In this document: in pieces, positions 2,742-58,087 of the stretch
Layout: every line of letters starts with the position of its first letter
Numbering within the stretch: position 1 is the stretch's first letter
IMG/VR virus record: IMGVR_UViG_3300022912_000001
Span: 1 to 58,087 of that record
Length of the DNA: 58,087 bases
Source: a virus
Lineage: Duplodnaviria; Caudoviricetes
Direction: 5' to 3' (one strand)
Made by a program: the position numbers and the translations under genes
Notes under the pieces: generated by a model
What the model was told of the DNA's origin: nothing
Seen by the model: the letters and a program-made list of their open reading frames with translations, nothing else
Database searches by the model: none

Positions 2742-3328
2742 TGGTCATAGATTACAAAAAGCTCTTTAAAGATGTTGTTTCTAAAGATGAGTATAAGCCA
2801 GCATTAATGCACCCTGCATATGATTGTAAGAATGATGTATTGGTTGCAACAAATGGTCACTTACTTGTAAAAGTCGCAAAAGTATCTAATGATTTGAAAA
2901 TTATAACTGATAGAGAAGATATTGCTATTATACCAATGAGAATATTTGAAATGTTACTTGAACTAAATAAACCATATAAAAAACTACCAAAAAGAGTACA
3001 CCATCTTCATATCGGTGGAGAAAAGGCAAATATCTGGCTAGATGAGGAACTTGTCTATGGTGAAAAGCTTATTGATGAACAATATCCACAATATAGTTCA
3101 GTTATTCCTGAGCCATATACAGGTACACCAGAAGTGTCTAGTGTGGGAATTAACCTTAAATACATGAAGGCGCTTGCAATGGCATTAAGCCAGGGCATTA
3201 GTCCATTGCATGTTGAGTTTAATTTTGCAAGAGAGATTGCACCAGTATTAATGTTTTGCGAAAGCTTTAATGTTAATTTCAATGTTGAACTTACAGTGTT
3301 GCTAATGCCAGTAAGGTTACATGACTGA
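2741..3328 (+). CDS. DNA polymerase III beta-clamp-like protein (truncated, 195 aa)
   Basis: LVATNGHLL, YPQYSSVIP, VGINLKYM and C-terminal LLMPVRL match DnaN domain motifs. Confidence 0.7.
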   Translation: MVIDYKKLFKDVVSKDEYKPALMHPAYDCKNDVLVATNGHLLVKVAKVSNDLKIITDREDIAIIPMRIFEMLLELNKPYKKLPKRVHHLHIGGEKANIWLDEELVYGEKLIDEQYPQYSSVIPEPYTGTPEVSSVGINLKYMKALAMALSQGISPLHVEFNFAREIAPVLMFCESFNVNFNVELTVLLMPVRLHD

Positions 3329-4133
3329 ACTAAAGCAGAAACAAGTCTTTGCCTATTTTGGGGGCAAACAAGGTGTTGCCTCTAAAATAGTTGCAATGAT
3401 TCCACCCCATACTCATTACATCGAGATGTTTGCAGGAGGGCTTGCGGTTTTCTTCCGTAAGCCCAATGCAACGTGGAGTTGTGTAAATGACTTAAACAAA
3501 GACATAGCAAACCTATATCTCTGCCTATCCATGCCGAAGGTCTTTGCTGAAGTAGCATGGAGACTCAAATGGCTTGTACAGTCAAGAGAGCTTTATGATA
3601 TTGCAGACCGAATGAGAAAAGTTGAAGAATTTAATATACCAAACATTGAACGTGCAACACTATATCTATTCTACATATCTAACTGCTTTAACCAGCGTAT
3701 AGGAACTGGCTTTAGTGACAAGTCCTCTAACTGGAATAGCGGTATAGCTGAACGCTTAATGGAATCACGTAAGAAACTTAACAACACTATAGTTGAAAAC
3801 TTAGACTATGTAAAGCTTGTTGATAAACACAAAGACAAAGAAAACTCATTTTGGTATGTAGACCCACCCTATTGGATAACAGGTAAAGTACCATATTACA
3901 AATTCAACTTTGGCAAAGAAGACCATGAAAAATTAAAAGAACAAATGGATGTACTTGACAAAGCTAATGCAAAGTTCCTAATAAGCTATGATGATATTCC
4001 AGAGATACGAGAACTATACAAAGACTACAATGTTAAACCCTTCATGGTGAGGTACGGTTCAAATAGCGTACTGAAGCAGGAACTCGCAATAAGCAACTAC
4101 GCTTTTGCTGAACAAGAAACCTTGGAGTTGTAA
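3321..4133 (+). CDS. Dam/D12-class N6-adenine DNA methyltransferase
   Basis: YFGGK, EMFAGGLAV (motif I), NDLN, YVDPPY (motif IV), ISYDD. Confidence 0.92.
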   Translation: MTELKQKQVFAYFGGKQGVASKIVAMIPPHTHYIEMFAGGLAVFFRKPNATWSCVNDLNKDIANLYLCLSMPKVFAEVAWRLKWLVQSRELYDIADRMRKVEEFNIPNIERATLYLFYISNCFNQRIGTGFSDKSSNWNSGIAERLMESRKKLNNTIVENLDYVKLVDKHKDKENSFWYVDPPYWITGKVPYYKFNFGKEDHEKLKEQMDVLDKANAKFLISYDDIPEIRELYKDYNVKPFMVRYGSNSVLKQELAISNYAFAEQETLEL

Positions 4134-7958: not shown

Positions 7959-8188
7959 CAAGATTCACGTTTATATCAGAAGTGCTATGGGAGAAAAACA
8001 TATCATGGCTATTCAGTATAATATCTATACGCATAAAATCAGATGCTGGCATGCAAAGGATTACAACCCTTGAATTTGCTGGCCTTGTAATACAACTTAC
8101 TTACAGATATAAGTCTGCTTTTGAAATCTCGATAAGAGGATACAAAGAGATTGGTGTGTCTCTTGTATTCCATCTTATTCATCACTAA
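7955..8188 (+). CDS. Hypothetical protein, last gene of the + arm
   Basis: ATGA-coupled start; 3' end overlaps the convergent gene. Confidence 0.55.
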   Translation: MTRFTFISEVLWEKNISWLFSIISIRIKSDAGMQRITTLEFAGLVIQLTYRYKSAFEISIRGYKEIGVSLVFHLIHH

Positions 8189-11100
8189 AGATTTCATTAT
8201 ATAAGTCAGCACTATCTGTAATTTGGCGGAAGAGCAGTCCGATGAGTGCTGGAGTAGTAAACATTAGTATACTATTCTGAGCATTCTCGGACACTTCCCC
8301 ATACTTTTCATCATCATCATCATATCCCATCATAAACATAGCTGTGAAAGCAGCCATCTTAATTGTCTGAGATAATATTGGAGACTCACCTGAGCGAACA
8401 AGAGTTGAGCCAAAGTTAAACACACTTACCTTCCTGATAATTGTAGATAGCAATGGAACTAGACTTATGAAAGTTGACAGTCCAGATGCTAGAAACCTCG
8501 TATACATTAAACGCAACATAATGACTGCATCGCCATCAATACTTGTATCTGCATTAAACGCTATTTCAGCCTCTTGCTTATTGAAATGCTTATTGTATAA
8601 ATGCTTTAATATTTGCATTTGTGCATTGTGCAACCTCTGTATGCTGTGAGCAGAACTCCTACTACCAGCAAAGAATCCCTTCATAGTGTCAAATTCAAAT
8701 TGTGTTTGCTGTGTCTGATAGCCCTTGTACTGGTTTAGCAGTCTAAATATACCAGAGAATGCCTCACCTAAATGAGCCTCAGTCATTCCAAACATCGTTG
8801 CGTATACAGCCCGCCTTCCTATCTCAATAGCCTGCGGTGAAGTATATACCTCATCCATAGTTTTAAGGTCTTCGGGCTTAACGCCTATCCTTGAAATGAT
8901 ACCCCTGTCAATAGCATCAAAGATGGCCGCTAGTGCAGTCATCTTCCTCATGTTTTTTTCACCGCCTGTGAACGTAAATAGTTCCTTGCCAGGCAAAGAC
9001 TCAAACCACCAAGACAACTTCCATGTTACCATAGCTTTGAACCTATCCTCTGCTATATTGCCAACAAGGGCTTTAAGCCTGCCTGCAACTAACTCCCTAG
9101 AATCCCCTTTTTTGGAAGCGATGAGTTGGTGAAGCATCTTCCTCGCATAGCGAATATCCTGCTTTTTGTCGCCATGATATTTTTCCTGTATCCTTGCCAA
9201 TAGTGCATCTACTGACTTTTTCTTCCTGTCACTAAATTTACCATTGACAAAATCACTTTGACTCAGCTTTGCAAGTCTAGCCCAGTCTATCATTGTAAGC
9301 GATGGAATGTTTGTGCCTGGGATGTTAGGCGTGTCAAATGGGTCTATAGTAGAATCAGATAACAGATAGTGTTCAAAGGCTGACAGCATATTTTCAACAC
9401 CCATTTGCGCAACCCTATCATCCCAAACTTTACGCTCTTCAACAGTACCTGAATTAATAGATGACCATGCCTCACCTATCGGCTTCATCCCATAACGAAT
9501 ATAGTTGTTGAGAATCTGTGTATTATTGCCTAATGCACCCTTTGCGCCCAATACACGCATTGATACTGCGCCAGCCATAGTCAGAATTAACTTCCTTGCA
9601 GAATAGGCATCGTATGTAGAGCCACCAGTAAAGGCTTTAGGCAATTTATTTAATAGGTTTGCGACCCATATATAGTTGCCCTTGTCTTTGTTCTTACCTA
9701 ACAACCCTCTAATGCTTGGGTCGCCAAGTGTCTGCCTAACCTTCATCTCTGCATAGTCAACTACATTGTGGTTCACACCAGCCTTAGTCATGTTAAATTT
9801 AGACTCTAATAATTTCAGGGTAAGCTCATTGTTGAATTGTTGGGTAAGAGCACCCTTCATATAGTCAGACACAACATTCGCACCCTTACGCCTTTTCAGC
9901 GGGTCAGTCCATGACACTCTTGACTTAAATGAATTAATTTGCTTATTGAGGATGGTTGAATTTACAGTCTTCCCGTCATCACTACCGCTTGACCTCTCCG
10001 AGTTATATGTTCTGAGTTTTTGTATATGTGCTCTACTCTCTTTGAGTTTTTTGAATTGCTTTATATGTGCGGCCTTCTCTTCGGCAGTAAACTCAGATGT
10101 GTCAAATCTTGCGTTAGTATCCATCTGATTCTGAATACTGAGGATTTCCTTATCCATCATTTCATCAAGAACTTCACCCCTGTAACTGCGTGGAAAATAA
10201 TTCTCACGAATATAACTAAACCATGAGTTGCCAGTCTTTATACGGCCATGTCTATCACGATATACGCGATTCATGACATCGCCAGAATATAGCACATCGT
10301 TTATCCATTCATCTACATCAGTCGTAGTGCCGTTCTTCTTATCCTCTTCTGCTAACCATGCTTCTATACTATCTGCTACATTGTTAAGCTTTTGCTCTGT
10401 AATCTCATTCCTTCTTGCAGTTTCTTCTGCAAACGTTCTCAAGTCACTACGCTTGATTGCAAGTGCCTCATAGAACTCTTGTGTGAATATGCCCTTGTTT
10501 ACATCTGGCATTAGAGTGAATTTCTTATATACTGGATATTGGTTTCCATCATGAGTCTTTATATATGAAACATAGTCTGAACGATAATAGCCGTCAGCTG
10601 GCATCTCTTTGATATGAGTATTCCCACTATCTACAAGACTATGCCATTTCCCATCTGCCTCATCCTGCTCACTTACAATGTATGCATCTCCATTGCCAAC
10701 AGCATCCTTGTCCTCAATTATTACATACATGTAGTTCGTTGTGCCAATTCTAATATACTGCTTTTTACTATTCTTATCTTTATCATCTAACAGTTTACGA
10801 AACTCAGCATCATCCCTAAAGTCATCCTCAAGTCTATTGAATCTTCTGAACTTTAGCTTCTTCACTTGCCCATCAAGTATTTCCTGAGTGAATACGGCAG
10901 ATACCATAAGGGCTAATTTTTCCTTATATATCTTGTCTGTGAGGTTTGTCTCACCTGCTGTATGCCACTTCTTGTCAGTCCACATATACTCCCTGCGACC
11001 GCCAACTATACGCATATCTATAATTCGTATATCTTTATTTGCCCTGTTTTGGTTATGCATTGGGCCAAGTCCAAGATTGCCGATATTCAAAGCGTTGTCA

Positions 11101-11726
11101 GCAATCATCCCATTCAATACTTTTGTAAGCTCTGCTTCTGAGGCATTGATATTAGCCATGTACTTAAAGAAGTGTTGGTTAATAATATCAGGTGTGTCCA
11201 TAGCTAAACGCACAAGCTTCTGAGCTATACCTGACTTATCCCAGTTAAACATAACAACAGCAGGGCGACCTAAAGCTCTGTCTAATAGTGGAATATCACC
11301 CTTGCCTCCATTAGCGGCTAACGCCTTTGCAACCTTGCCATTCCTGTTCTTAATTGTCTTGTCTACTATCTTGACTAAAGCCATTGCCCTGCGTGGCCCA
11401 TTAATAACTGTTTCAGGGTTAATGCTTTGGCCGCCTGTGAACCTTGTCAACTCCTCATTCCACCCAGTAACAAGGTCTTCGATGATAGTGGTGTCATATT
11501 CCCTGAATGAGCCGACTTCTGTAATGTCAGTCACAAGCATATTGTTCAATACTCTTGCAAACTTCAGTCTCGCTGCTTCATTGCCAGTAGCGGCCTTCAC
11601 ATCAGCTTCAGTAACATTGCCTACCATCCTATTGACATGAGCCTTTGCCATCATTATATATGAATTTCTTGCAATATTCTCTAAAGACTTGTCGCGGTTG
11701 CTGTTTTTACTACACGTTGTTGCCAT
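8175..11726 (-). CDS. Large putative internal virion/ejection protein (1183 aa)
   Basis: Directly follows the RNAP-like gene; helical; hydrophobic C-terminus; function inferred from position only. Confidence 0.6.
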   Translation of the reverse strand: MATTCSKNSNRDKSLENIARNSYIMMAKAHVNRMVGNVTEADVKAATGNEAARLKFARVLNNMLVTDITEVGSFREYDTTIIEDLVTGWNEELTRFTGGQSINPETVINGPRRAMALVKIVDKTIKNRNGKVAKALAANGGKGDIPLLDRALGRPAVVMFNWDKSGIAQKLVRLAMDTPDIINQHFFKYMANINASEAELTKVLNGMIADNALNIGNLGLGPMHNQNRANKDIRIIDMRIVGGRREYMWTDKKWHTAGETNLTDKIYKEKLALMVSAVFTQEILDGQVKKLKFRRFNRLEDDFRDDAEFRKLLDDKDKNSKKQYIRIGTTNYMYVIIEDKDAVGNGDAYIVSEQDEADGKWHSLVDSGNTHIKEMPADGYYRSDYVSYIKTHDGNQYPVYKKFTLMPDVNKGIFTQEFYEALAIKRSDLRTFAEETARRNEITEQKLNNVADSIEAWLAEEDKKNGTTTDVDEWINDVLYSGDVMNRVYRDRHGRIKTGNSWFSYIRENYFPRSYRGEVLDEMMDKEILSIQNQMDTNARFDTSEFTAEEKAAHIKQFKKLKESRAHIQKLRTYNSERSSGSDDGKTVNSTILNKQINSFKSRVSWTDPLKRRKGANVVSDYMKGALTQQFNNELTLKLLESKFNMTKAGVNHNVVDYAEMKVRQTLGDPSIRGLLGKNKDKGNYIWVANLLNKLPKAFTGGSTYDAYSARKLILTMAGAVSMRVLGAKGALGNNTQILNNYIRYGMKPIGEAWSSINSGTVEERKVWDDRVAQMGVENMLSAFEHYLLSDSTIDPFDTPNIPGTNIPSLTMIDWARLAKLSQSDFVNGKFSDRKKKSVDALLARIQEKYHGDKKQDIRYARKMLHQLIASKKGDSRELVAGRLKALVGNIAEDRFKAMVTWKLSWWFESLPGKELFTFTGGEKNMRKMTALAAIFDAIDRGIISRIGVKPEDLKTMDEVYTSPQAIEIGRRAVYATMFGMTEAHLGEAFSGIFRLLNQYKGYQTQQTQFEFDTMKGFFAGSRSSAHSIQRLHNAQMQILKHLYNKHFNKQEAEIAFNADTSIDGDAVIMLRLMYTRFLASGLSTFISLVPLLSTIIRKVSVFNFGSTLVRSGESPILSQTIKMAAFTAMFMMGYDDDDEKYGEVSENAQNSILMFTTPALIGLLFRQITDSADLYNEIFSDE

Positions 11727-11728
11727 GA

Positions 11729-14700
11729 TTACACCTTACACTTATTATAATATTCATCAACCCTCTTAGACAAAGCCTCTCTTATGGCTTCCCTACCCTC
11801 AACTGTTGCAATAGCCTGTTGTATAGACTTAAACCTCCAGCCCCTTAATTGGGTATATGCATCATATATCTTCTGTGACTTCATTGTATCTGCTGGCTCT
11901 ATCAATTCATAGCCATGCTCTTCAACCATTGTCTCTATAGTTTGAGTAACATCACCATCAAACTTAACTAAGTTATTAAGAGCTTGCTGTCGTATCATTC
12001 CATACATTTGATATATCTTATTATGTTGGAACCTTACTGGGAATAGCTTTTGGAAGTCAACTTTATTCGTAGCCTTCCCTTCCTTATTCCTTGTATCTAA
12101 TGAAGTTAGCGAGTGTAGCGTAGCAATCATTTTCTGTGTATCTGTTAATGCATTCCACACAACACCAGCATCCTCAAACAACTTAGCAAAGCGGTCATTC
12201 TTGTCTATTTTCACCTTATCTGGGTCGCCAGTCTCATCAATAACTTTCATGTACTGAGAGTTAAAACCATCTGCCCAGAGAACTGCTTCGGCTAGTTCTG
12301 CATCTGTAATTCTATCACCTTCTGTAAGTGTATTATATACATCAACAAGTGCCTGCCCTGCAATGACATGAGCCGCTGTATTCATTCTTGGAGTCCAATG
12401 CAATGGGTCATATTTAAGATTGCCATTGTCTAGCTTAGATGCTTCCTCTCCGAACTTAGCAATCATTGATTCAATAGGGCTGAGTGATGGGTTGCCCATT
12501 TCAATGCTAGTCTTTTTATAATACCCACTATTTATCTTAGCAGTATAGTCTCCATCAAGCCTGTTTATAGTTTTAAGGAACTGTTCCATTTGGTCATCAA
12601 GTTGCTGTTGAAAATGCTCAGGTTCTGCATTGTATAAGTCATTCAGACTCTCAGCCATAGATACAAGGTCATTAAAGTTAAGCTGGTTGCCGCCAAGCTT
12701 ACCCTGTCTACGACCTATTTGGTTTAGGAACTTCATAGCGAACCCGCTAATTGCCTTCCTGTCCTTGTCGCCAGTCTCACTATCGTCTACTGGAAACTCT
12801 TCCGCAAACATAAGGTCTTCGATATAATTTGCAGGTAGTTTGGATAGTAAGCCAAATTTAGCATCATCTGTAGCGGCCTGTGTCAGTATTGAATATACAT
12901 GCTCTACTGTAGTTTTTAAATATACAGGGTTGTCAAGTTTGCGCAATTCTTCAACTGTAGTAAACTCAACTTCGTTACCATCAACAAGGTCATCAACTAT
13001 AATATCACCCTGAGCTATAATATACTTCTGTATGTCCTCATTACTAAGGTACTCAACGTCAAGTGGGATTGGGAATACTTCATTAGGTGCAAACGTTCCT
13101 TCTATTGGCTCACCATCTTCATCATATTCTCTTTCGTGAGGTTCTTTCATTGTGTACGTTCTGCCATTGACAGTAATTTTCACCTGTTTGTATGATAGAG
13201 ACTTGTGCAATGATGCCTGAGTCACAACTATACCAACTGCATTTTCCGCTACATCTTGATTCTGAATAACTTGCTTCATGTCGCTGTTTATCAAAAGGTT
13301 ATTCGAGCCAATCTTATCTAGCTTCCTGCTGAATAGCTCAAGCCGTAATAGCTTGTCTCTCCATTTCTTATCTACGCTCTTGCCCTCAAAAGCATCACGA
13401 TAAGCCTGGAGATAACCACTCTCAACATCCTCAGTCCTGAAGAAGTCATAGTAGCCCTTGTCACCATCCCAGTCACCCTCAAAGATTTCAGTAATGTCAG
13501 CCCATGTGTGAAATACATTTGAGCCTGCACCGAATCTGAATGGAGCAAGCTTAAAGGGTCTTGCAGTAGTCCATCTATTAACTGGCTGTCTTGAGGCTAA
13601 TACATAAACCTCTCCACCATCTGTAATCCACTTGTTAATTATTTCAACTCTAGCCTTTAATGGTTGAGCATTAAATTCTCTGAGTGTAATATCTTTGTCT
13701 AGCAGATAGTGCTTAACTGCCTGGTTCAATGCAGACTTGTTATCAACACCAAAGGCAACTTCCCCATCCTTAACTTCATCGGAGAATATGTCTGGCTGAT
13801 AGTATGCTTGAGTCTGCGAACCATCATTCCTTCGCCCCTTAAAGATATTGTTCTTGATATACTTGTTTGCAAGGTAATCAAGCATTAACGGCATGTTTGT
13901 AGGATGAGACAGCATTGAGCCTGTAGGGTCTTTAATTAATACCTGTTGTAATTCTGTAGGTATCTCTCCATCCTCAAGTGTCCTGTTGATTTCAGCCTTC
14001 ATAACAGCAGGATTTGACAACAATTCAAACAACACGCCTGAATGCTTAACAACATTAAGATTGTTATTCTCTATAATTGCATCTACAAGCGCATCTATAT
14101 GTTCATCCTGAAACCTTGTGGACATCATCTCTGCGGCCGCATATGGAAAAGCTGAAGTAGTTGTTGACTTGTTTCCGTTTGTAGTCAGTAGCTTAACATC
14201 ATTTTCATCTAGCTCATGTATTTCATACATAGCATCGAATCTACCATTGGTATTCTTTGCCTCATTCGGAGATGCAATCCTGTCGAACCGCTTGCCTCCT
14301 GCCATGAAATAAGTGCCGTCTTTAGCCTTGCCTGTAGTAGCAATAACAGTACCATCTGGGCGTTTAAATACCAAACCTTCAGGCAGTACAAACTCAGCAT
14401 GCTTCATACCTAAGTAGTCAGTAATGCCAGGCTTACTCAGCTCATGCTTGCCATTGTCATCCCTGTGGTTAATAACAGTTTTAGCATATGCTAAATTATG
14501 ACCATCGCCAGTACGCTTATACCCAAATACTTCAGCATAGGCATTCATTAAGCCGCCTGATGTAAGGGTGGCACCATCAATCTTACTGTACTCAACCTCC
14601 CTGCCGTTTGGCATCACAATAATAGTATCTTCAGGAACTATCATAATTGTATTTGTAACAGCAGTATTCTCTATATACTTATTGAGTCCAACAGGTGTCT

Positions 14701-17700
14701 TGCCCTCAGTCATATCAATACGCAAGCGGTTGAAAAAGTCTTCAATACCCTTCCACTTGCCAGGCATTAGATACTGTCTATGTCGAGTCTCTTTAGCCCA
14801 CTCATGCACACCTATAACCTGCATTAAGGCATAAGGATTCTTCTTCAATAGCGGTAAATTAGCTTCATAGATTTGGTCTGCCATTACAACTGGAATAGTC
14901 CCATCCTCAACTTCAGCATCTATGTATGCTCGATATGTTTCCTTCTGTGTTTCTATAAACTCAAGATAGTTAGCTCTCGTTACATTCTTATCAAAGGGAA
15001 CTTCAACTGAGGCAAATGTAAGTTGACTACCATCACCACCCTTAGTTGCCGCAATAGTATATAGCTTGTCGAAAGCACCGCTCTGAAAGCTCTTTGCGAA
15101 TTGCTTGTTAAGTTCATCTACAAGGGATACTGTTATGCCATCTGCATTCTTCTTGAAGAAGTTATATTTGCTCTCATCTTCGCCAACCTTTTCATCAAAG
15201 ATGTGCTCCAGTAGGTCATTCTTAGATATTGAATGGGTCTCAATTTTAAGCTTACTGTTCAGCTTCCTGCGCCTCTCTAGGAAGTTCTCGCTGACCATTA
15301 GGGCTAATAGCTTATCTGCCGCTTTATCCCATAGTCTACCCTTAACTTCAGGATGCTCTTGCTTGCGCTGAATAGTTTGAAATTCACCAGCTTTGTCAAA
15401 TATCACTTCCCACATTGTGCGTAGGATGCCTTGATTGTTTTCTGTAGTATAATACTCTGTAGCTGAAATTTTACCTGCAAACATCTGTTTCAATGAGTTC
15501 TCGAACTTGTCACTAAATTTATTCCAGTTTTCAATCTTAGATTTTGGTATTCTATCCTTAAAGCCTTCATATCTAATTTCTGTACCATCTTCATTGGACC
15601 CAAGACTCCTACCTTTCTCTCCGAACTTGCGAAAGTTATTAATAAATGTAGTGACATTCGGGCTTTCCCTGATAACGTCAACAAGCATTGCATACTCTTC
15701 GCCAGTGAAGTTTACGCCTATCTCACTAAGGAATACAACAGCATCATTACCGCCTGTACCTACTGCAATATTATTAACGTCTGAGTTTTCTTCTGTGTTC
15801 TTAGAGTAGGCAACACCATCATAATATGATTCTACCGTTTTAAGGTCTGCATTGTAGAACATCTCTCCAAGTAAGTCGCCTGTAGCATCTACATTGCCTA
15901 GAAAGCCCTTAACTGCCTGTACAAACTTCTTTAGCCAGTTACGCATCAGGTTCTTTTCGTATGTACCCTCACGCATCTTGTTTGTATAGTATTCGCCTAT
16001 CTTCTGTACAAGTGCTTCTTCTGCCTGCTTCTGTGTCATACCAGGCTTTCTGTAGCGTTTGAGACCAAGCTTGACAGCGTATGTATCACGCATCATTGAA
16101 ACCCAGATATGTGCGAACTCATGAGGAATGGTGTCAATAGTACCTTGCTCACTAATAGTAATCATATCACGAACTGCCATGCCGAATGCCTCAATGCCAT
16201 TGGCTTGAATTAGCTCTTCAATTATCTCTACCTTAACATTCGGGAACTGCTCATGTAAACGCTTGAGCATCTTAGCTGATAGTGACTGGTCATCCTTTAC
16301 AAGCGTTTCATTTTCAGTTATGGATTCTTTGAAAACATGGTCATCATTGCTTGTCTTGTTGTTACCATCAGGCGTATCGAAAAAGTCATCAACATCTTCT
16401 TTAGTTGGAGTTGTATCTTCTTTAATATCCTCTGCAAGTAATTGTTCAAGCCCCTTATCTTCTCTATATTCTTGTATAAACTGTTCGTCAACAACTCTAT
16501 CTTGGTGCCTTTCAGCTAAAGCTTTCCTAACCCTAATAGCAACAGTTGGGTCTGATTGTGCCGCCATCAATACTGCATTTTGCAAGCTTGTAGATACTCT
16601 TGCATTCATGTTTTTCCCAGTAACACGATACCTTCCATCATCAAGCCTTATAAGCGTTACGTCTGATTTTGATATACGGTCATTGTCAACTTTTGCCTGC
16701 TCAATAAATTCATTAAGAAATTCTACTGCTTCATCATCAGTATATCTATTAGTTTTCTTATTGAAATAATTACCGTGGCGAGTAAAGTCCTCTATCTCTT
16801 TTTCAATTGGAGTAAGTGATTCACGTCTAGCTCTTTCAGCAGCCAGTTTCTCGCGTGCAGTAAGCTTAGTCTCCTGAGTTGGCTTAGTTGCTTTAGTACC
16901 AAGAGCTTTTGCTAGTGTTACATCGCTTAGTCTTGTCCCTCTTGTCTTTGTACGATTGCCCTTTTCGTCAACCCTGTATTCATCAACGAACAGCATGTCT
17001 GACACTCTATTTGGAGTGCTTGTTACAACATAGACATTACCATCAACGCCAGTAAACTCATCTCCCTGAACAAAGTCCTGAATAACACTTTTACCTTCCC
17101 TGCCTGTAGTCTCTTGAGTAGTCTTTGTAGCTTGAGTAGGTGCGGTAGCTTTCGTTGCTTCTCGCTTAGTATTGATAGCCTCAACAATACTGTCCATGTT
17201 ACCAGTATATTTAACGCCTTCATCTTTGGCAAGTTTTACGAGTTCATCTCTATTCTTGAACTGCTCTTTAGTAACAGGTTCAGTGGCTTGAGTTGGTGCT
17301 GTAGCTTCAGCCTTATCAAACATAGTTGGAAGACCACGAACATATTCAGCTTCTATGATTTGCGAAAAGTCATCACTCTCAATTAACTGCTCATCAGTAA
17401 CCCCATACGGGCTTTCTTCATCTAACAGTTTATCATAGTTATCAATAAGTGCGTTTGCCTCTGAGCTAGTAAAACCTGCTTTTGTAAGTGTCTCATGGAC
17501 ATATTCTTCCTTAATATTATCCATAAGATAAGTAATGGCATTTTCTTCAGCATATTCCTCTTCAGCATCTTGGTTATCTTTTTTATTCTCCTTTGATACC
17601 AACTCTCTTACTCTATTAAGCTTTGACCTGAGTACATTCTTAGCACCCTCAACAGTACCATCTGATTCTGCGATAGGCGTTTCCTGCTGTTGCTGTTCAG

Positions 17701-20077
17701 CCTCCCTCGCTGCTTTAGCTGCTTTGAGTTGCGCGAGCTTTGAACCACTACCTGCAACTGGAGTAGCATTATCATCTGCCTCTTGGTTACCATCTGCCGT
17801 AGCATTATCTGTAGCCTGAGAGTCGTTAGCAACCTGAGAATTTGTAGTAGGCTGACTTCCTGTAGCTGGCCTTCTGCCAGTAAGTTTTTGATTCTTTCCC
17901 TTATTCTGCCCTGGAACATAAGGTGCTTTATCTGCCTTATTAAATGTTGTTGAGAATTGCTCTGCTGGAGTTTTTGGAGTAGTAGTATTGTGAGCGTTCA
18001 TTAGGAACGTATTGCTTGCGGCTACCAACGATTCCTGAGTTTTTACATCAACATAGTCTGCAAGCTGTGCTTTCGTAAGGGCAGTTGTATTCCCATCCTC
18101 AGTCCTTGCAAAATATCCAACATCGTTACCTACCCTGCCAACACCAATATCTATACTTGTCCCCTCTTCATTAACAACAGTTACAGATACTTCGCTTTCG
18201 CCAAGGTTTGTAGATACAGTTTTAATATTCTCGTTATTCTTCGCAACACGATTCTGCTCACTAACATCAACAGTATTTGTTTCTGTGCTGACTTCAGGGG
18301 CAACTACAACTGGAGCTTCTTGAGCCTTCTTAGCCTTCGCTGTCTCTTCATTAATACGAGCTATTAATTCTGGCTTGTAGCCACTATCATCAATACCCAT
18401 TGCCTGTGCATGCTCTTGAAGTTCAGCCTTATTCATCTTGCCTATAGGCTTGCTAGGCTCGACTATCTTTACTGTAGGCTCTTCTTTAGGTGTAGGTGTA
18501 GGTGTCTCAGCCTGAGTTTCAGGAGGTGTTGTAGTCGTAGCCTCTGCTGTCTCATCCTCTATCTCCTGCGCCTCACGCTTATGACGAGCTAAAGCCTCAG
18601 CCTTCGTTTCACCACGCTCACTTTGCTGACCACGCTTAACTGGAGTCATCTCACCTTCGGCAGTCATCTCACCATCTGCTGACATGCCATCAGAAGTCAT
18701 ACCGCTATCTGGGGTCATGCCTTCAGTAAATGCATCACCGCCAGTATTGCTAGTACCCTTCAACAGTTCTTCTTGTTGCTCTGGAGTTAAGTCCTCACCT
18801 AGTTGTTCATATGCATTCTTTAAAATCTTTTCAGGGTCTAGCTCTTTTTTGCCGCCAGACCTATCGGGAGTATTCCTAAGAAGTGAAGTTGGCCCAGTAA
18901 TAGCGGCACCAGTTAATAAACCGCCAAAGAATGACTCCCTTGCCTCTGGAGACCAAGCCTCACGCTTCCATGCCTCTGAGAAATTCCTGAATGCCTCTTC
19001 AGGGGAGTCTCCCCATCCCTCTTTATAGGGAACCTGAACTGCAACCTGCGCCATATACTGCAACCACTCAGTAGTACCTTCCTCTGCGGCTTGCTTTAAG
19101 CCGTCTTGAGTAAGATGGCCAGCCTTTCGTATCACAGCAGATGTACTTTTTGCAAATAGCTTTGCACCCTCCCTTTTTGTCTCGTTGAGGATGCCTGCCT
19201 TTTTGAGCATTCCTGCCATTGGCATATACTCAAAACCCCCAGAAACAAGACCATATATCATTGCAGACGGCCCAGCCGCTTTTGCTGCTTCTTCAACAGA
19301 CTGACCCTCTTCATCTACAAGATATGACATTGCCTCATTGTACTGACTTGAGCCTTCAAGCATTGTCATCCCAGCCATAGATGTTCTCTGCGCAATAGTA
19401 TCTAGTGTCAGGTCGCGTGTAGCTTTCTTAGCCGCTTCTTCAAAGCCTTCTTTAGTCATCTCTTCGCCAGACTTAGCAATCCTAAGTAATGCAAGCTTCC
19501 TGCCTTTTTCAGAGACAACCTTAGCCATTGTTTTTCCAGAGGCTTTCGTCAGTAGTGAACCGATACCTTTTGACGTTACAGCTATAGCTGCCATTTCTAC
19601 GATAGATGGAAGTGATGATGCTAGAGTTCGCGAAAGCATATCTAGTTGCCAGAAGTTATCGAAACCTATAGGTTGGTCTGCCTGCCACTCAATGAGAGCT
19701 TGTAATTCAATATCGTTTGCAATCTGCTTGCGAGTTTCTTCCTCGCCTTTAAGTTGCAATTCTCTAGCATAGTTTGAGATTACATTGTTGGGGTCTAGGC
19801 CGAGAGCACCAGCTACATAGCCAGCTATACCTACGTTACCTGAGATGAATGAGTCCATGTGTTGACCCATGTTGAACATGAATTGGTCTATGAAGTTAGG
19901 GGCTGCTTCACTACCTGATTGCTCGTAGGCTGTTTTGCCTGCGGAGTATGACTGTTGATTCTTTTCATTTTCAAAGTAAGACTTCATTACTCTGTCTACG
20001 TCATCTGGCGTGAAACTTACATTATCTTCTTTGTAGCCGGAGATAATCCTATCGCGGACGTATTGTTCTGATGGCAT
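11729..20077 (-). CDS. Giant virion protein (2782 aa), putative virion-packaged two-barrel RNA polymerase with zincin-like and HeH/SAP-like domains
   Basis: VLASRQP (RQP at 13583-13591) ~35 aa before EGDWDGDKG (DWDGD at 13460-13474), as in beta' R-x-P...DFDGD; KIDG...K...GMKH upstream; HEFAH at 16109-16123. Confidence 0.8.
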   Translation of the reverse strand: MPSEQYVRDRIISGYKEDNVSFTPDDVDRVMKSYFENEKNQQSYSAGKTAYEQSGSEAAPNFIDQFMFNMGQHMDSFISGNVGIAGYVAGALGLDPNNVISNYARELQLKGEEETRKQIANDIELQALIEWQADQPIGFDNFWQLDMLSRTLASSLPSIVEMAAIAVTSKGIGSLLTKASGKTMAKVVSEKGRKLALLRIAKSGEEMTKEGFEEAAKKATRDLTLDTIAQRTSMAGMTMLEGSSQYNEAMSYLVDEEGQSVEEAAKAAGPSAMIYGLVSGGFEYMPMAGMLKKAGILNETKREGAKLFAKSTSAVIRKAGHLTQDGLKQAAEEGTTEWLQYMAQVAVQVPYKEGWGDSPEEAFRNFSEAWKREAWSPEARESFFGGLLTGAAITGPTSLLRNTPDRSGGKKELDPEKILKNAYEQLGEDLTPEQQEELLKGTSNTGGDAFTEGMTPDSGMTSDGMSADGEMTAEGEMTPVKRGQQSERGETKAEALARHKREAQEIEDETAEATTTTPPETQAETPTPTPKEEPTVKIVEPSKPIGKMNKAELQEHAQAMGIDDSGYKPELIARINEETAKAKKAQEAPVVVAPEVSTETNTVDVSEQNRVAKNNENIKTVSTNLGESEVSVTVVNEEGTSIDIGVGRVGNDVGYFARTEDGNTTALTKAQLADYVDVKTQESLVAASNTFLMNAHNTTTPKTPAEQFSTTFNKADKAPYVPGQNKGKNQKLTGRRPATGSQPTTNSQVANDSQATDNATADGNQEADDNATPVAGSGSKLAQLKAAKAAREAEQQQQETPIAESDGTVEGAKNVLRSKLNRVRELVSKENKKDNQDAEEEYAEENAITYLMDNIKEEYVHETLTKAGFTSSEANALIDNYDKLLDEESPYGVTDEQLIESDDFSQIIEAEYVRGLPTMFDKAEATAPTQATEPVTKEQFKNRDELVKLAKDEGVKYTGNMDSIVEAINTKREATKATAPTQATKTTQETTGREGKSVIQDFVQGDEFTGVDGNVYVVTSTPNRVSDMLFVDEYRVDEKGNRTKTRGTRLSDVTLAKALGTKATKPTQETKLTAREKLAAERARRESLTPIEKEIEDFTRHGNYFNKKTNRYTDDEAVEFLNEFIEQAKVDNDRISKSDVTLIRLDDGRYRVTGKNMNARVSTSLQNAVLMAAQSDPTVAIRVRKALAERHQDRVVDEQFIQEYREDKGLEQLLAEDIKEDTTPTKEDVDDFFDTPDGNNKTSNDDHVFKESITENETLVKDDQSLSAKMLKRLHEQFPNVKVEIIEELIQANGIEAFGMAVRDMITISEQGTIDTIPHEFAHIWVSMMRDTYAVKLGLKRYRKPGMTQKQAEEALVQKIGEYYTNKMREGTYEKNLMRNWLKKFVQAVKGFLGNVDATGDLLGEMFYNADLKTVESYYDGVAYSKNTEENSDVNNIAVGTGGNDAVVFLSEIGVNFTGEEYAMLVDVIRESPNVTTFINNFRKFGEKGRSLGSNEDGTEIRYEGFKDRIPKSKIENWNKFSDKFENSLKQMFAGKISATEYYTTENNQGILRTMWEVIFDKAGEFQTIQRKQEHPEVKGRLWDKAADKLLALMVSENFLERRRKLNSKLKIETHSISKNDLLEHIFDEKVGEDESKYNFFKKNADGITVSLVDELNKQFAKSFQSGAFDKLYTIAATKGGDGSQLTFASVEVPFDKNVTRANYLEFIETQKETYRAYIDAEVEDGTIPVVMADQIYEANLPLLKKNPYALMQVIGVHEWAKETRHRQYLMPGKWKGIEDFFNRLRIDMTEGKTPVGLNKYIENTAVTNTIMIVPEDTIIVMPNGREVEYSKIDGATLTSGGLMNAYAEVFGYKRTGDGHNLAYAKTVINHRDDNGKHELSKPGITDYLGMKHAEFVLPEGLVFKRPDGTVIATTGKAKDGTYFMAGGKRFDRIASPNEAKNTNGRFDAMYEIHELDENDVKLLTTNGNKSTTTSAFPYAAAEMMSTRFQDEHIDALVDAIIENNNLNVVKHSGVLFELLSNPAVMKAEINRTLEDGEIPTELQQVLIKDPTGSMLSHPTNMPLMLDYLANKYIKNNIFKGRRNDGSQTQAYYQPDIFSDEVKDGEVAFGVDNKSALNQAVKHYLLDKDITLREFNAQPLKARVEIINKWITDGGEVYVLASRQPVNRWTTARPFKLAPFRFGAGSNVFHTWADITEIFEGDWDGDKGYYDFFRTEDVESGYLQAYRDAFEGKSVDKKWRDKLLRLELFSRKLDKIGSNNLLINSDMKQVIQNQDVAENAVGIVVTQASLHKSLSYKQVKITVNGRTYTMKEPHEREYDEDGEPIEGTFAPNEVFPIPLDVEYLSNEDIQKYIIAQGDIIVDDLVDGNEVEFTTVEELRKLDNPVYLKTTVEHVYSILTQAATDDAKFGLLSKLPANYIEDLMFAEEFPVDDSETGDKDRKAISGFAMKFLNQIGRRQGKLGGNQLNFNDLVSMAESLNDLYNAEPEHFQQQLDDQMEQFLKTINRLDGDYTAKINSGYYKKTSIEMGNPSLSPIESMIAKFGEEASKLDNGNLKYDPLHWTPRMNTAAHVIAGQALVDVYNTLTEGDRITDAELAEAVLWADGFNSQYMKVIDETGDPDKVKIDKNDRFAKLFEDAGVVWNALTDTQKMIATLHSLTSLDTRNKEGKATNKVDFQKLFPVRFQHNKIYQMYGMIRQQALNNLVKFDGDVTQTIETMVEEHGYELIEPADTMKSQKIYDAYTQLRGWRFKSIQQAIATVEGREAIREALSKRVDEYYNKCKV

Positions 20078-20092
20078 ATTCTACCTCTTTTG

Positions 20093-22501
20093 TTACATTG
20101 TTATTCCACTCCGAGCTAACCTCTCTAGGTCAGCATCAGATAATTCTTTTGTCTTGCCCTGCATTAAGGCTTCATCTATTCGGTCAACGCCAGTAAACTT
20201 TCCTGCATTGACTTCACGCCAATTCATAAGGTCTGTTTCCTTGACCCTCCTTGTGAACTCAATAAATTGCTTGACTTCAGCCATAGAGGTAATTTTGACT
20301 TCATGCATCTGGGCTTTAAACTTTTCATCTTTCCATAATTTCTCTGCCGCAACATCATCCGTTGAGGATGAAATGGTCTCCATTAGCAAATTGAATACTG
20401 GGTCGCCCTTACTCTTTGCAAGTTTATTATACTTAGTTTCAAGTGCCTTAGCATCTTCTCTTGTAATGGAACTATTTTTGTCAGCAACAAGGTTGTCAGT
20501 TTTTGTGGCTTCACGCTTTGATATTTCTTCTTTGCTAAGAGACTTTAATTCCTTAGTCTTTGCCATGCGCTCTTCTACAGTCTCATGCTTACCAAACTCG
20601 TCTATAAGATTTTCTTGACCTTCAAGATATTTGTTTTTGTCTGGCTTTTGAATGCCAGCATTAGCTGAACGTGTCTCTCTGTCCTGCTTACGCTTCAGGG
20701 TCTGTATTTGATTCTTCCAATGTTTCTCAATACGCTCTTCGCTATTCTTCTTCTGAATAGCACTCATATCAGGCTTTGGCCCAAATTCAGCAATAGCCTT
20801 ATCCATGCTAATTTTAAATTCAGCCTGCCCAGCTGGCTCTAGTTCTGCAAGTTTTGCCTTCTGAGATTTAGATTCTTTTGGAGTCCATGAGAAGTTTTTA
20901 ATTGCATCAAAAAGACTATCTCTCAATACCTTTGCTTCTGCCTCAGATGCAGTCTTGCCTGACATTATACCGCTTGCAATACTGCTTGCGCTACCAGGTT
21001 CAGATTCTTTTTCTCTTGCTACTATTGAATTAAAGGTAGCATCTGCTTTTTCTGCATCGCCATACTTTTCCTGCAAGGCTTTATACTCTTCATTCTCATC
21101 CAGCTTGGCTTTCACATCATCTGTTGATGCATTATAAGCCTCTAAAATCCTATTGTATTCAGCACGACCCTTTGCAAAGTCGGCAGATGATTCATCAGGT
21201 AATGCATTTGTTGCAGTATCTTTATCGCTATCGCCAGTGCCGTCACTATCTTTTCTTCTCTGTGCATCAATAGCATCATTAGTAGCCTTGCGTTCCTGTG
21301 CTTGCGCACTTGACTTTCCATTCATTGGATTCCAATAGTCCTCGATAACCTCAGTAAGTTTCTCAACTTCCCTTGGCTGAAGTCTGCTGTTATAGAATTT
21401 ATCTCTGTACTTATTGACTGCCGCACCAGGATTCTCAGCATTTAACATTTCAAGTGCCTGTTCTTTTGTGAAGTCTGGCTGATTCCCAAGCTCAGTATTA
21501 CGCATAACACCAAGAACCATATTTACAGTATTCGACTTGAAGTTGCCAACACTACCCTTCGCTGAACCAGTCTCGATAGTGTCTCTGGCAATCTTATTCC
21601 ATGTAATAGCACTTGAGTCTTTATCATCATCAGGAGGAAGTCTAAAACCACCTCTCCTGTTGTAGCCATGAGATTGAACAAGTGCACCTGAAAGGATGCC
21701 ATTATTTGCGTCTTCAGCTTTCTGCAACTCTGTAATATTCTCAAGCTGTAGTTTTGCCGTCTCTGCATCAGCTTTATTAATAGCAGCTTCATCCTTTGCA
21801 ATCCCAGCTTTCAAACCCTTAATTCCGAGAGCCGCTATTTCATCAGCATTCTCAAGTTTAAGTCTTGTAGCTTGAGCATCAGCGGCCGCTTCAGCATATC
21901 CTGGAGCATTCTTAGTAAAGTTATCTTTAATGTATTGAAGTTCGCGCTCATCAAAATCAGATACTTCAGCAAAAGCTTTAAATTCTTCGTCAGACATTGC
22001 AAAGTTCTTGTCTGTATCTGCCCCTGCAAACATTGCTTCTGTACCTCTATCAATAGCCGCAAACCTAGCTTCATTTGCATACAAGGCATCATTGGCTTGT
22101 GCTAAATCATCAATAAAGGCAATTAACTCATTCTTGCTTGCCTCATCATTTTTATAGCCCTGTTTTACAAGTTCAATATAACCCTTTGTATATTTATCGC
22201 CAGAGCCAGCATCTTCAATGGCGATACCCTTTAATTCCTGTGCTTCAAGTCTTTGCTTGTATGTATTGATTGACTCATCAATTTCTTTGAGTACAAGTTT
22301 ATGTGCAAACTGGTTTTCTTCATACTCACGGGCAGAATCAATTCTTGCTGTTTCATACTCCCTATTTAAAGCCGCTTGAGTTTCCTGTGAGGTAATTCTC
22401 TGGCTTTGCAGTTCAGCATTAGTAGGCTTAAACAACTGGCCAACCTGTGATATGCCACCTGTAATAGCTCTTATTAAGTCTGCATCACTTTGTCGTGCCA
22501 T
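20093..22501 (-). CDS. Putative ejection/internal virion protein (802 aa, coiled-coil rich)
   Basis: Position in the ejection cluster; Ala/Lys/Glu-rich helical composition. Confidence 0.55.
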   Translation of the reverse strand: MARQSDADLIRAITGGISQVGQLFKPTNAELQSQRITSQETQAALNREYETARIDSAREYEENQFAHKLVLKEIDESINTYKQRLEAQELKGIAIEDAGSGDKYTKGYIELVKQGYKNDEASKNELIAFIDDLAQANDALYANEARFAAIDRGTEAMFAGADTDKNFAMSDEEFKAFAEVSDFDERELQYIKDNFTKNAPGYAEAAADAQATRLKLENADEIAALGIKGLKAGIAKDEAAINKADAETAKLQLENITELQKAEDANNGILSGALVQSHGYNRRGGFRLPPDDDKDSSAITWNKIARDTIETGSAKGSVGNFKSNTVNMVLGVMRNTELGNQPDFTKEQALEMLNAENPGAAVNKYRDKFYNSRLQPREVEKLTEVIEDYWNPMNGKSSAQAQERKATNDAIDAQRRKDSDGTGDSDKDTATNALPDESSADFAKGRAEYNRILEAYNASTDDVKAKLDENEEYKALQEKYGDAEKADATFNSIVAREKESEPGSASSIASGIMSGKTASEAEAKVLRDSLFDAIKNFSWTPKESKSQKAKLAELEPAGQAEFKISMDKAIAEFGPKPDMSAIQKKNSEERIEKHWKNQIQTLKRKQDRETRSANAGIQKPDKNKYLEGQENLIDEFGKHETVEERMAKTKELKSLSKEEISKREATKTDNLVADKNSSITREDAKALETKYNKLAKSKGDPVFNLLMETISSSTDDVAAEKLWKDEKFKAQMHEVKITSMAEVKQFIEFTRRVKETDLMNWREVNAGKFTGVDRIDEALMQGKTKELSDADLERLARSGITM

Positions 22502-22989
22502 TAGACTAAACCCCCATTACCAAACTGGTCTTCTACATCAAAGTCATAGTCGCCAGCATCAAGGTTAAGCCTGTTAGACAAGAATGAAGTATATGCTTCT
22601 TGCATGCTAGACTTCACGCCAAATATACTTTCTCTCTGCGCTTTAGCCGCTTGATTCTCGCTCTGCCTCTGTTGCAACATACTCATTTTAATTGAATCAT
22701 TGAAGCTTGTGTCTGCACTAGCATTTACTGCAAAGTCTGCCTTGCCGATTTTAAAATCATATTCAGCCCTTACCCCCTTACGCTCAAACTGTCCTGACTG
22801 CCCTGCAAACTCCATAGCATTTGTATAGTCATCTGCTATACCAGCTTTTTCAGAGCTTAATAGTCCAATAGTATCTTGAAAGTTTGCGTATGATTCTTGG
22901 TCAGTTGCATAGTCTTTATCGCTTCCAGCTTTACCGCCATAGTGACCTCTCCCAAACCAACCCTTGTCTTTATTGTATAGCCAACTCAT
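22501..22989 (-). CDS. Putative internal virion protein (162 aa)
   Basis: Coupled ORF in the ejection cluster. Confidence 0.55.
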   Translation of the reverse strand: MSWLYNKDKGWFGRGHYGGKAGSDKDYATDQESYANFQDTIGLLSSEKAGIADDYTNAMEFAGQSGQFERKGVRAEYDFKIGKADFAVNASADTSFNDSIKMSMLQQRQSENQAAKAQRESIFGVKSSMQEAYTSFLSNRLNLDAGDYDFDVEDQFGNGGLV

Positions 22990-24404
22990 TATCTTCTCCC
23001 TCCCTTACTCAGCGCATTGAAGCCAAATTTACTTAGGGCCATTCCACCACCAACGATAGCACCTATCGGCCCACCAAATGTAGCGGCTCCTGTAGCAGTA
23101 AGGTCGTAAATGGCTCCAAGTCTATTCGAGTCTTTTTGTGCCTGAGTTCTACCTACCCCACCAGTAACTAAATCTTTTGCACTCATACCAGCACCTATAA
23201 GATTCAATGCTCCAACTGCCTTACCTGCAAATTTACCTACACCGCCAGTTGAGTCTGCGAGTAAATTAGTTTTGTCTGCGAGTGCAGTAGTCTTGCTGTT
23301 TAATATATCAAGAGCTTTTGGTGTTGACCCTGAATGCAATCCAATACCAGTCTCAATAGCCCTACCGCCTGCCCTTGCATGAATTGTAGCATCAGACAGT
23401 CTTGCACCTGCATTTTTTATAGCATGGGGGAAAACAACACCCTTGCCACGCTTTGCACCGGCTACAGCCTCTTTAGTAAGGCTTGAATTAACTCCAACCT
23501 GCGCTCCTGCCTGCCTAGCCTGCTTACTTACACGCATATTTGTCAAGTTATCTTCATACTTAGATACATCAGTACGAAGTTCTGGGCTACTTCTGTTGAA
23601 CGCTCTTCCAGAATACTTCTTAGCTTCTTTAATCTTTGATATTCTATCTACTATTGGCTTTGGGCTTGGCTTTTGAAACTGCATCCCCATACTACCTGTA
23701 GATTTATCTCGTATTCCTATTCCCATTACACTCATATCTAACAACTCTGGAGAACCACCCCTAACAGTAGGGTTTGCAATTTGACTAAGCACGTCTTGGT
23801 CAACAAGGTCTGTTCTAGGTGCTACTTCACCCATCAACTTATCTGAAGACTTATTAAGACCGTCAAATGTAGTCCCTCTATTCGGGTCTCTCATTGGTGG
23901 CTTAACATTCGGCCTAACCTTTTTAGCTTCTGCAGTTCTACCAAGTCCAGAATCTAACTCTGGTCTTCCAGGGTCTGTCAATAATTGTTTTGATAGGTCT
24001 GCTTCACTACGCTTAAAGCCATATTTAGCATTAAAGGCATCAGCACTTTTTTGTGGAGCAGCCTTTATTTCAGCATTTAGAGCTTCCTCTGCTTGACCAG
24101 CCTTTGTAAGTTTGAAATCTTTTTGACCTGGCAACAACTTGCGCCTAATAAGACCCAATGTAGAGTCTGGTGAGTCACCATATTCATACATCTTCTCGCC
24201 AGATTCAGTTGTCTTGCCTAGAAACTTGTCCTCAACAAGACCCTTTCTGAAGTCAGCACCCTGAGTAAGTCCTGTTACAATCATTTCACCCAATGCAATA
24301 TTGCGACTTCTGCGCTCATCCTCTTGGATTGTCTGATTTCTGAGCTGAGTTTCACGGGTTCTCATCTGCGCTCTAACAAAATTTTGATATTGGTTACCCA
24401 TCAT
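22989..24404 (-). CDS. Putative DNA pilot/ejection protein (471 aa)
   Basis: C-terminal Gly/Ala hydrophobic segment GAATFGGPIGAIVGGGMAL typical of ejection proteins. Confidence 0.55.
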   Translation of the reverse strand: MMGNQYQNFVRAQMRTRETQLRNQTIQEDERRSRNIALGEMIVTGLTQGADFRKGLVEDKFLGKTTESGEKMYEYGDSPDSTLGLIRRKLLPGQKDFKLTKAGQAEEALNAEIKAAPQKSADAFNAKYGFKRSEADLSKQLLTDPGRPELDSGLGRTAEAKKVRPNVKPPMRDPNRGTTFDGLNKSSDKLMGEVAPRTDLVDQDVLSQIANPTVRGGSPELLDMSVMGIGIRDKSTGSMGMQFQKPSPKPIVDRISKIKEAKKYSGRAFNRSSPELRTDVSKYEDNLTNMRVSKQARQAGAQVGVNSSLTKEAVAGAKRGKGVVFPHAIKNAGARLSDATIHARAGGRAIETGIGLHSGSTPKALDILNSKTTALADKTNLLADSTGGVGKFAGKAVGALNLIGAGMSAKDLVTGGVGRTQAQKDSNRLGAIYDLTATGAATFGGPIGAIVGGGMALSKFGFNALSKGGRR

Positions 24405-57973: not shown

Positions 57974-58087
57974 CTAACGAATCGGTAGAGTTGAAGGCGC
58001 ATAAAAGAATATGGCTACAGCAAGAGGGCGAGACTACTTGGTGTCAGGATAAAATTAACGATGATGATATTGAGTACGTTTTAGCCA
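57970..58087 (+). CDS. Hypothetical phage protein, 5' part; continues across the junction to 292 (~105 aa, MTNESVELKAHKRIWLQQEGETTWCQDKINDDDIEYV...KEEEG)
   Basis: GGAGG RBS at 57961, ATG at 57970 overlapping the previous stop; frame stays open through the repeat; not in the ORF track. Confidence 0.8.
   Translation, partial: MTNESVELKAHKRIWLQQEGETTWCQDKINDDDIEYVLA
57996..58087. repeat. Terminal direct repeat, right copy (circular assembly overlap)
   Basis: Identical to 1-92; an ORF reads through the junction. Confidence 0.95.

Follow-up and report, generated by a model that had tools for sequence, protein, structure and literature searches.

The giant gene and its motifs

The window analysed here is the whole 58,087-nucleotide stretch of the IMG/VR virus record IMGVR_UViG_3300022912_000001 (Caudoviricetes), and the element studied is its largest gene. 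This gene (11729..20077, minus strand) is the second-last of the late operon, and its open reading frame (ORF) is intact from an ATG start and encodes a giant, polyvalent virion-type protein of 2,782 residues. In our model, the last ~1,000 residues of this almost cysteine-free protein take the fold of single-chain RNA polymerases, as known from crAss-like phages and from eukaryotic RNA interference (RNAi), and therefore the phage very probably injects a polymerase of its own. The whole product is likely to be a polyvalent cargo protein, carried inside the capsid, ejected into the host and tethered to a partner protein, with its single-chain two-barrel RNA polymerase serving early transcription.

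The motifs that the original prediction had read from the letters of the gene were all present: HEFAH at residue 1319, KIDG at 1832, GMKH at 1890, VLASRQP at 2159 and DWDGD at 2202-2206, with KIDG 370 and GMKH 312 residues upstream of DWDGD. Their coordinates held when each stretch was translated again from the window. The polymerase module occupies residues ~1701-2782 (11732..14977, minus strand), as delimited by the structural model and its matches in Foldseek (PDB), VIA and BFVD. Within it lie an upstream beta-like barrel region (residues 1810-1966; 14180..14650, minus strand) and a catalytic beta-prime-like barrel (residues 2088-2212; 13442..13816, minus strand), the latter carrying R2163-Q-P2165 (13583-13591) and D2202-W-D-G-D2206 (13460-13474).

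The C-terminal module is predicted to fold as a two-barrel RNA polymerase

We aligned the C-terminal 1,141 residues of 22 sequences that are 18-35% identical to the window protein (alignment A2), and used this alignment for AlphaFold2 modelling of residues 1642-2782. The model had a predicted local distance difference test (pLDDT) score of 75 and a predicted template-modelling (pTM) score of 0.71, and both barrel regions were mostly at pLDDT 82-94. The model was compared with the PDB by Foldseek and with the 48,161 chains of VIA, the best 50 matches being listed for each. The top Foldseek matches were QDE-1 (7y7t_A, E 1.4e-6) and phi14:2 gp66 (6vr4_A, E 1.8e-6, probability 1.0), followed by RDR2, then by beta-prime chains of cellular polymerases, and then by AR9 and P23-45-type phage enzymes. 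In VIA, rows 1-19 were all two-barrel RNA polymerases (Z 13.2-7.9), including RDR2 (Z 13.2, 539 residues), a beta-prime fragment of AR9 (Z 13.0, root-mean-square deviation 3.2 Å over 150 residues), QDE-1 (Z 12.3, 587 residues), gp66 (Z 11.3, 719 residues), the phiKZ non-virion RNA polymerase (Z 11.3), P74-26 gp62 (Z 10.1) and P23-45 gp96 (Z 8.0). The whole-chain alignments with QDE-1, gp66, RDR2 and gp62 reached over both barrels, about model residues 40-1074, and isolated double-psi beta-barrel domains matched at Z 6-7 over the DxDGD barrel (model residues 435-587). The first three matches in BFVD were unnamed viral proteins of the same family (E 2e-35 to 4e-28, TM-score 0.62-0.68), and the next named ones were crAss-like phage proteins and phi14:2 gp66. 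Taken as a whole chain, the predicted structure thus supports the barrel pair on which the original prediction depended, its best matches being single-chain two-barrel polymerases aligned across both barrel regions. At the level of a predicted model, the fold and active site can be taken as established as far as computation allows.

An N4-type (T7-like) polymerase was rejected as a candidate, because the fold of the module is two-barrel; no T7-type polymerase was among the Foldseek and VIA matches listed for the model of residues 1642-2782, and upstream of it the modelling covered residues 1239-1658.

The same fold bears on the idea that an injected two-barrel enzyme serves mainly DNA replication, either as its primase or as a DNA polymerase of the PolD kind. 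PolD has the same two-barrel core (PMC7281927), and the early arms of the genome encode DnaB and gave no polymerase or primase from Pfam. However, no PolD chain occurred among the 50 matches listed by Foldseek or VIA, the strong matches were all RNA polymerases, DxDGD together with R-x-P is an RNA polymerase signature, and use of the host replisome is the simpler account of the missing DNA polymerase. We therefore regard a mainly replicative role as improbable, and an RNA polymerase for transcription as the better reading of the module.

Two further elements of an RNA polymerase can be proposed in the model. The conserved helix YLKTT...IL.Q..D..KF (residues 2386-2408; 12854..12922, minus strand), which has invariant columns in alignment A1 and is helical in the model, lies 184 residues past DxDGD and may be the equivalent of the bridge helix; in gp66 the bridge helix is described as beginning 168 residues past its motif (gp66 preprint). 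N2452, R2457 and G2459, beside a low-confidence loop, are a candidate trigger loop.

Candidate catalytic residues are invariant in aligned members of a large family

A word-indexed search gave seven homologues besides the window protein, six with DWDGD and one (P0006) in which DYDID aligns with the motif. When IMG/VR was scanned for patterns with alignment A1, 21 loci emerged (L001-L021); in 20 of them the giant ORF carries D[WY]DGD, and L015 has DHDGD, a recurrence beyond chance. Of the 21 contigs, seven measure 54-59 kb and one 111 kb; the latter (L005; 111,116 bases) is about twice the usual 55-59 kb and is possibly a concatemer assembly. The A2 profile extended the family to 523 clusters at 50% identity (E ≤ 0.001), 260 of them at E ≤ 1e-30.

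Searches of Pfam, PHROGs, PDB sequences and GenBank phages do not pick up the family. The whole giant protein gave only sub-threshold matches to SAP and DinI in Pfam and one weak match, to endonuclease VII, in PHROGs, and phmmer against PDB sequences gave nothing relevant. By tblastn against 50,697 GenBank phage records, neither its last 1,299 residues nor the L007 and L018 proteins had a match. A locus search with a single protein in viral contigs found no relatives, and a literature search for 'DWDGD' returned unrelated papers only. When genome contigs were scanned with A1, none of the 150 pattern hits was a relative, and so the scan gave no prophage and no clue to the host.

The invariant positions of A2 comprise R1784, D1834, G1835, G1852, K1866, K1892 and K1941 in the upstream part, and G2053, N2148, R2163, P2165, D2202, D2204, G2205 and D2206 in the later part. 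Eight residues are described as common to all two-barrel polymerases (D709, R738, K743, R962, P964, D1007, D1009 and D1011 in QDE-1; PMC2919709), and we found that all eight positions have an invariant candidate in A2, in the same order and with similar spacing. The Arg-x-Pro pair, which is R446/P448 in Rpb1 and R962/P964 in QDE-1 (PMC2919709), corresponds to R2163 and P2165, and these lie 39 residues ahead of D2202, where about 35-45 residues are expected in the superfamily. In the beta-like barrel, the candidates for the fourth Asp and the basic residues are D1834, K1866 and K1892, and also K1941. The original prediction had proposed a second barrel with two conserved lysines, and this is supported by the invariant upstream Asp and lysines; it had likewise relied on conservation of DxDGD in homologues, and the Asp residues of the motif are the same in 22 of 22 sequences.

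Among 146 family representatives, 116 have DxDGD, and most of the other 30 are DxDxD variants or fragments. Position 2 of the motif in these 116 is W in 27, F in 23, H in 19, Y in 15, N in 11 and another residue in 21. The replacement of the usual Phe by Trp noted in the original prediction is thus real in the window protein, but it is a trait of a subfamily. Lower-scoring members of ~1,460-1,680 residues (P0133, P0136, P0150, P0156 and others) carry DFDID, DHDID or DHDHD. Since some distant representatives have DFDID or DHDID, the crAss-type Ile at position 4 also occurs inside the giant-protein family.

Such conservation is hard to reconcile with barrels that lack polymerase activity and persist as a structural relic within an ejection or channel protein. 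Most of the giant protein has no assignable function, and the crystal of phi14:2 gp66 is described as a self-inhibited state (gp66 preprint), as a relic would allow. The candidate catalytic residues are nevertheless all invariant across 22 sequences at such low identity, and most representatives keep DxDGD, which makes a relic highly improbable and argues for an active polymerase.

Gene position, partner gene and natural fusion

The window carries a single minus-strand operon running from 47.1 kb to 8.2 kb, flanked by plus-strand ORFs in two arms (0.5-8 kb and 48.9-58 kb), and the GC skew switches sign at the borders of the operon. The operon encodes TerL (phrog_38, E 2e-43) together with a P22-like portal (PF16510, E 2.7e-39), and after the portal an SU10-type capsid protein (PF17236, E 3.9e-10), a Laminin_G_3 fibre-like protein and an 844-residue protein that matches the 'internal virion protein' phrog_511. 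ORFs of 471, 162 and 802 residues, in that order (20093-24404, minus strand), stand just upstream of the giant gene. The last gene of the operon encodes a partner of 1,183 residues (8175..11726, minus strand) and starts 2 nucleotides past the stop of the giant ORF.

The partner has hydrophobic helices close to its C-terminus and is conserved in 14 of the 21 loci by BLASTP. In L001 (6557-17521) the two genes form one natural fusion, an ORF of 3,655 residues in which the stretch 2439-3638 shares 39% identity with the partner. By tblastn the partner had no match in the 50,697 GenBank phages; hhalign of the partner alignment A4 against phi14:2 gp65 gave nothing, and BLASTP of gp65 against the partner gave nothing significant.

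These positions bear on whether the polymerase travels in the virion at all. An active enzyme that is made late and stays out of the virion, for example for late genes as with P23-45 gp64 or the jumbo-phage non-virion enzymes, would suit the fold, which also matches non-virion enzymes (those of AR9 and phiKZ, Z 13.0 and 11.3, and P74-26 gp62, Z 10.1), and the window phage is known from its sequence alone. However, the gene lies within the virion operon, is fused to a non-polymerase part of 1,700 residues and is followed by a partner with hydrophobic helices; its product has one cysteine in 2,782 residues, as in ejected proteins; and a late gene product must be carried in to serve early transcription of its own genome. 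We consider a non-injected polymerase unlikely, at about the level of the replicative role above, and favour the ejected one.

Lone cysteines flank the gene junction

The sole cysteine of the giant protein is C2780, the third residue from the C-terminus (11738..11740, minus strand), and the sole cysteine of the partner is C5 (11712-11714). The background frequency is 0.41% (36 cysteines in 8,845 residues of 20 window proteins, three cysteine-free ones included). The upstream 802-, 162- and 471-residue proteins have no cysteine and may be ejected cargo too; the next, of 844 residues, has eight.

In every one of the 19 loci where the C-terminus of the giant ORF is intact and separate, we found that this ORF carries a single cysteine, 0-5 residues before its end. 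Each of 18 downstream ORFs examined has a cysteine early in its stop-to-stop frame, within the first 5-17 residues, and three have a second one at 27. Two pairs among these loci, L006/L007 and L019/L020, are near-identical and not independent. The fused ORF of L001 has no cysteine. Among the 146 representatives, 132 have a cysteine within eight residues of the C-terminus, the cysteine count is one in 113, and cysteine makes up 0.051% overall; the three of fusion length (P0020, P0042 and P0045; 3,651-3,902 residues) have none. The pattern recurs in phage phi14:2, in which gp67 ends in ...IC, the cysteines of gp66 are C3 and C2179 alone, and that of gp65 is C3. A looser form was seen in Kehishuvirus 'tikkala', phage DAC15, Flavobacterium phage Fpv20 and crAss002 gp32; crAss002 gp33, with seven cysteines, is an exception. 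Cysteine suppression is described as a mark of N4-like ejection proteins (PMC11445570).

As a tentative explanation, for which we see a real but lesser chance, the lone terminal cysteines may form a head-to-tail disulfide or thiol link that joins the polymerase protein to the next cargo in the virion in place of the peptide bond of the fusion, is reduced in the host cytoplasm, thereby releasing or activating the polymerase, and is shared with crAss gp67-gp66-gp65. If so, the thiol link would mark both polymerase modules, dissimilar as they are in sequence, as a single ejected unit of ancient origin, and a general terminal-cysteine rule could explain the ordering and release of cargo proteins in ejection. 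Such a pairing of terminal cysteines was not found in the literature searched, and cysteine or disulfide had no mention in the gp66 preprint. A complex prediction with the last 301 residues of the giant protein and the first 330 of the partner scored 0.26 against a mark of 0.32, which counts neither way.

Comparison with crAss-like phages

In phi14:2 the last genes of the virion operon are gp67, gp66 (2,180 residues, DFDID) and gp65 (1,421 residues, HEIMH). The gp66 preprint reports that gp66 is injected, transcribes early genes in a rifampicin-resistant manner and favours single-stranded templates. As in the giant protein, both barrels of gp66 are in a single chain, and gp66 is a top-tier fold match. 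In both phages the polymerase gene is one of the last in the virion operon, with a partner gene of more than 1,100 residues downstream of it. Both modules have a zincin HExxH, in phi14:2 in the downstream gp65, described as zincin-like in the preprint, and in the window in the polymerase chain itself, upstream of the polymerase. Fused polyprotein forms occur in relatives of both systems, since according to the preprint gp67, gp66 and gp65 are fused into one polyprotein in some phages. Both confine their cysteines to protein termini flanking gene junctions, although the window lacks an upstream junction of the gp67 type.

The two also differ. The window motif DWDGD has the canonical Gly (G2205), whereas Ile or Val is reported at position 4 in all crAss-like enzymes (gp66 preprint) and was found in five of five crAss-type sequences that we checked. 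The window genome is 58 kb with no DNA polymerase recognised, against ~100 kb in crAss-like phages. The major capsid protein, portal and TerL had no BLASTP similarity to their phi14:2 counterparts, and no crAss record was among the matches listed when these three were searched by tblastn against the GenBank phages. The polymerase also has no sequence similarity to gp66, and at the sequence level the lineage is not a crAss-like one. Membership in Crassvirales was rejected, there being no sequence link in polymerase, major capsid protein, portal or TerL. With gene position, zincin motif, partner and fusion in common and yet no sequence similarity, these results indicate a different lineage with the same kind of module.

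Comparison with other known systems

QDE-1 and RDR2 are the closest cellular likenesses; QDE-1 is the top Foldseek match, and the VIA scores of both enzymes (Z 12.3-13.2) extend across both barrels. The canonical Gly of the motif is shared with the window protein, and some members of its family have DYDGD, the QDE-1 motif (PMC2919709). Unlike the window protein, they are eukaryotic cellular silencing enzymes acting on RNA or single-stranded DNA, and they have neither a zincin nor a virion context nor any sequence similarity to it.

N4 gp50 and its counterparts in Schitoviridae resemble the window protein in another way, being giant (~3,500 residues), ejected, cysteine-free polyvalent polymerases with a zincin (PMC5512222, PMC11445570), in genomes of a similar size class. 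The N4 polymerase is however T7-type (PMC5512222), while that of the window is two-barrel. P23-45 gp96, which is tape-measure-fused, and gp64/P74-26 gp62 are, like the window protein, single-chain two-barrel phage polymerases, one of them virion-fused, and matched at Z 8.0-10.1. This is a weaker match than QDE-1 or gp66, and these enzymes belong to a siphovirus and have another fusion partner. The polyvalent proteins surveyed by Iyer et al. 2017 (PMC5512222) share with the window protein the giant late-operon form, the zincin metallopeptidase-like domain and the swappable effectors, but the polymerase modules described in that survey are N4-type only. In PMC10770324, 23 two-barrel families were aligned, and the giant-protein family may already be among them.

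Proposed role of the giant protein

From gene position, architecture, cysteine depletion and analogy, we strongly infer injection and early transcription. The giant protein would travel inside the capsid and be ejected into the host before the DNA or along with it. Its parts come in the order N-terminal domain, linker with a SAP-like DNA-binding motif, zincin-like HExxH domain, which may be an active protease, and a polymerase of the QDE-1/crAss-gp66 class. In the putative active site, two Mg ions would be held by D2202, D2204, D2206 and D1834, and R2163, K1866 and K1892 would handle the nucleoside triphosphate and the RNA 3' end. The injected polymerase would take as its template the plus-strand early arms (48.9-58 kb and 0.5-8 kb) and transcribe them without the host enzyme, and the host polymerase would next take the minus-strand late operon. 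The 1,183-residue protein would be an obligate partner, probably membrane-inserting and tethered to the polymerase C-terminus.

Several points weigh against this account. The phage is uncultured. Sigma-70-like promoters near the late operon numbered 10, not above the 7.2 ± 2.9 of shuffled sequences. The equivalence of D1834, K1866 and K1892 with D709, R738 and K743 of QDE-1 is a putative one, drawn from order and spacing. The upstream barrel was aligned inside the whole-chain matches, and alone it gave one weak expansin row in VIA (Z 5.0). In sequence comparisons, hhalign of A2 gave a probability of 0.4% against gp66 and 0.8% against a five-sequence crAss alignment, BLASTP of gp66 against the 146 family representatives had a best E of 0.25, and phmmer found nothing; the three matches of A2 by hmmsearch against PDB sequences were all at E ≥ 0.45 and included no polymerase. 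Finally, the zincin-region model, in which HExxH falls in helix H76-90, was poor (pLDDT 50.8), and its Foldseek search gave nothing at E ≤ 0.001.

According to papers on these phages, experimental evidence for virion-carried two-barrel RNA polymerases is confined to crAss-like phages, jumbo phages and P23-45. The present work adds a separate, large family of 523 clusters that escapes family libraries and sits in ~55-59-kb podovirus-type genomes without a sequenced isolate, and polymerase injection would thereby extend to a new compact phage lineage. With its canonical, QDE-1-like active-site motif, the family offers a further phage enzyme, independent of the first, with which to compare the eukaryotic RNAi polymerases in view of their proposed phage origin, and a small, expressible enzyme for biochemistry.

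Genome ends and early arms

The record is complete, with an identical 92-base repeat at 1-92 and 57996-58087, and IMG/VR lists it with direct terminal repeats and 100% completeness. The repeat may reflect genuine redundancy of the genome ends, or else a circularly permuted genome whose assembly overlapped itself. By Pfam, the early arms encode DnaB, a Dam-type methylase, Rad52, a PD-(D/E)XK nuclease, dUTPase, RadC and a deformylase, all ORFs being of at most 431 residues. A scan of 20 early-arm ORFs revealed no polymerase, and PF00562 had no match in the whole record. The best GenBank matches of TerL are 19-24% identical and include N4-like (24%) and Paenibacillus phages, and the best phage matches of the portal are 22-24% identical; the major capsid protein had no tblastn match in the 50,697 GenBank phages.

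N-terminal regions, zincin and exchanged domains

The N-terminal domain (residues 1-430; 18788..20077, minus strand) is conserved in A1 and has two moderately hydrophobic, Gly/Ala-rich segments by hydropathy (residues 76-94 and 159-177). Its look-alikes in the Atlas were viral hypothetical clusters, in one of which 12% of the members carry LPD22. This domain may serve packaging or ejection, and the ejection-protein-like N-terminus of the original prediction has indirect support from the extreme scarcity of cysteine. The linker that follows (residues 431-1240; 16358..18787, minus strand) is variable and poorly conserved in A1, acidic and rich in Ser, Thr, Pro and Gln. It includes a SAP/HeH-like motif (residues 545-577; 18347-18445, minus strand) that scored 22.7 bits with SAP PF02037, below the cut-off of 23.9, and might hold the giant protein on DNA.

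The zincin-like region (residues 1241-1420; 15818..16357, minus strand) contains HEFAH at residues 1319-1323 (16109-16123). In alignment A3 (20 sequences), the H, E and H of HExxH were the only invariant columns (20/20), and HExxH lies 840-1,409 residues upstream of DxDGD in 19 loci; in L015 it is outside this range, and L012 is cut at its N-terminal end. The motif that the original prediction read as a zincin is therefore firmly conserved, but the fold and profile matches were weak. VIA gave low, non-diagnostic scores to anthrax lethal factor (Z 5.1, 119 residues), PPEP-3 (Z 5.1) and PPEP-2 (Z 4.2), hhalign placed the family HExxH on that of gp65 with a probability of 14%, SprT-like was weakly matched in 5 of the 20 members (best E 0.11), and hmmsearch of A3 against PDB sequences gave nothing relevant. 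The pairing of polymerase and zincin is a known theme, because N4-type virion polymerases are reported as always fused to a lethal-factor-like zincin (PMC5512222).

Pfam matched a 2OG-Fe(II) oxygenase (E 1.4e-11) in one A3 member and a GNAT acetyltransferase (E 8e-6) in another, both in the same variable region, and this exchange is the swappable-module habit of polyvalent proteins. NADAR or Rho_N domains (PF08719, PF07498) were found in other members (P0006 and P0009).

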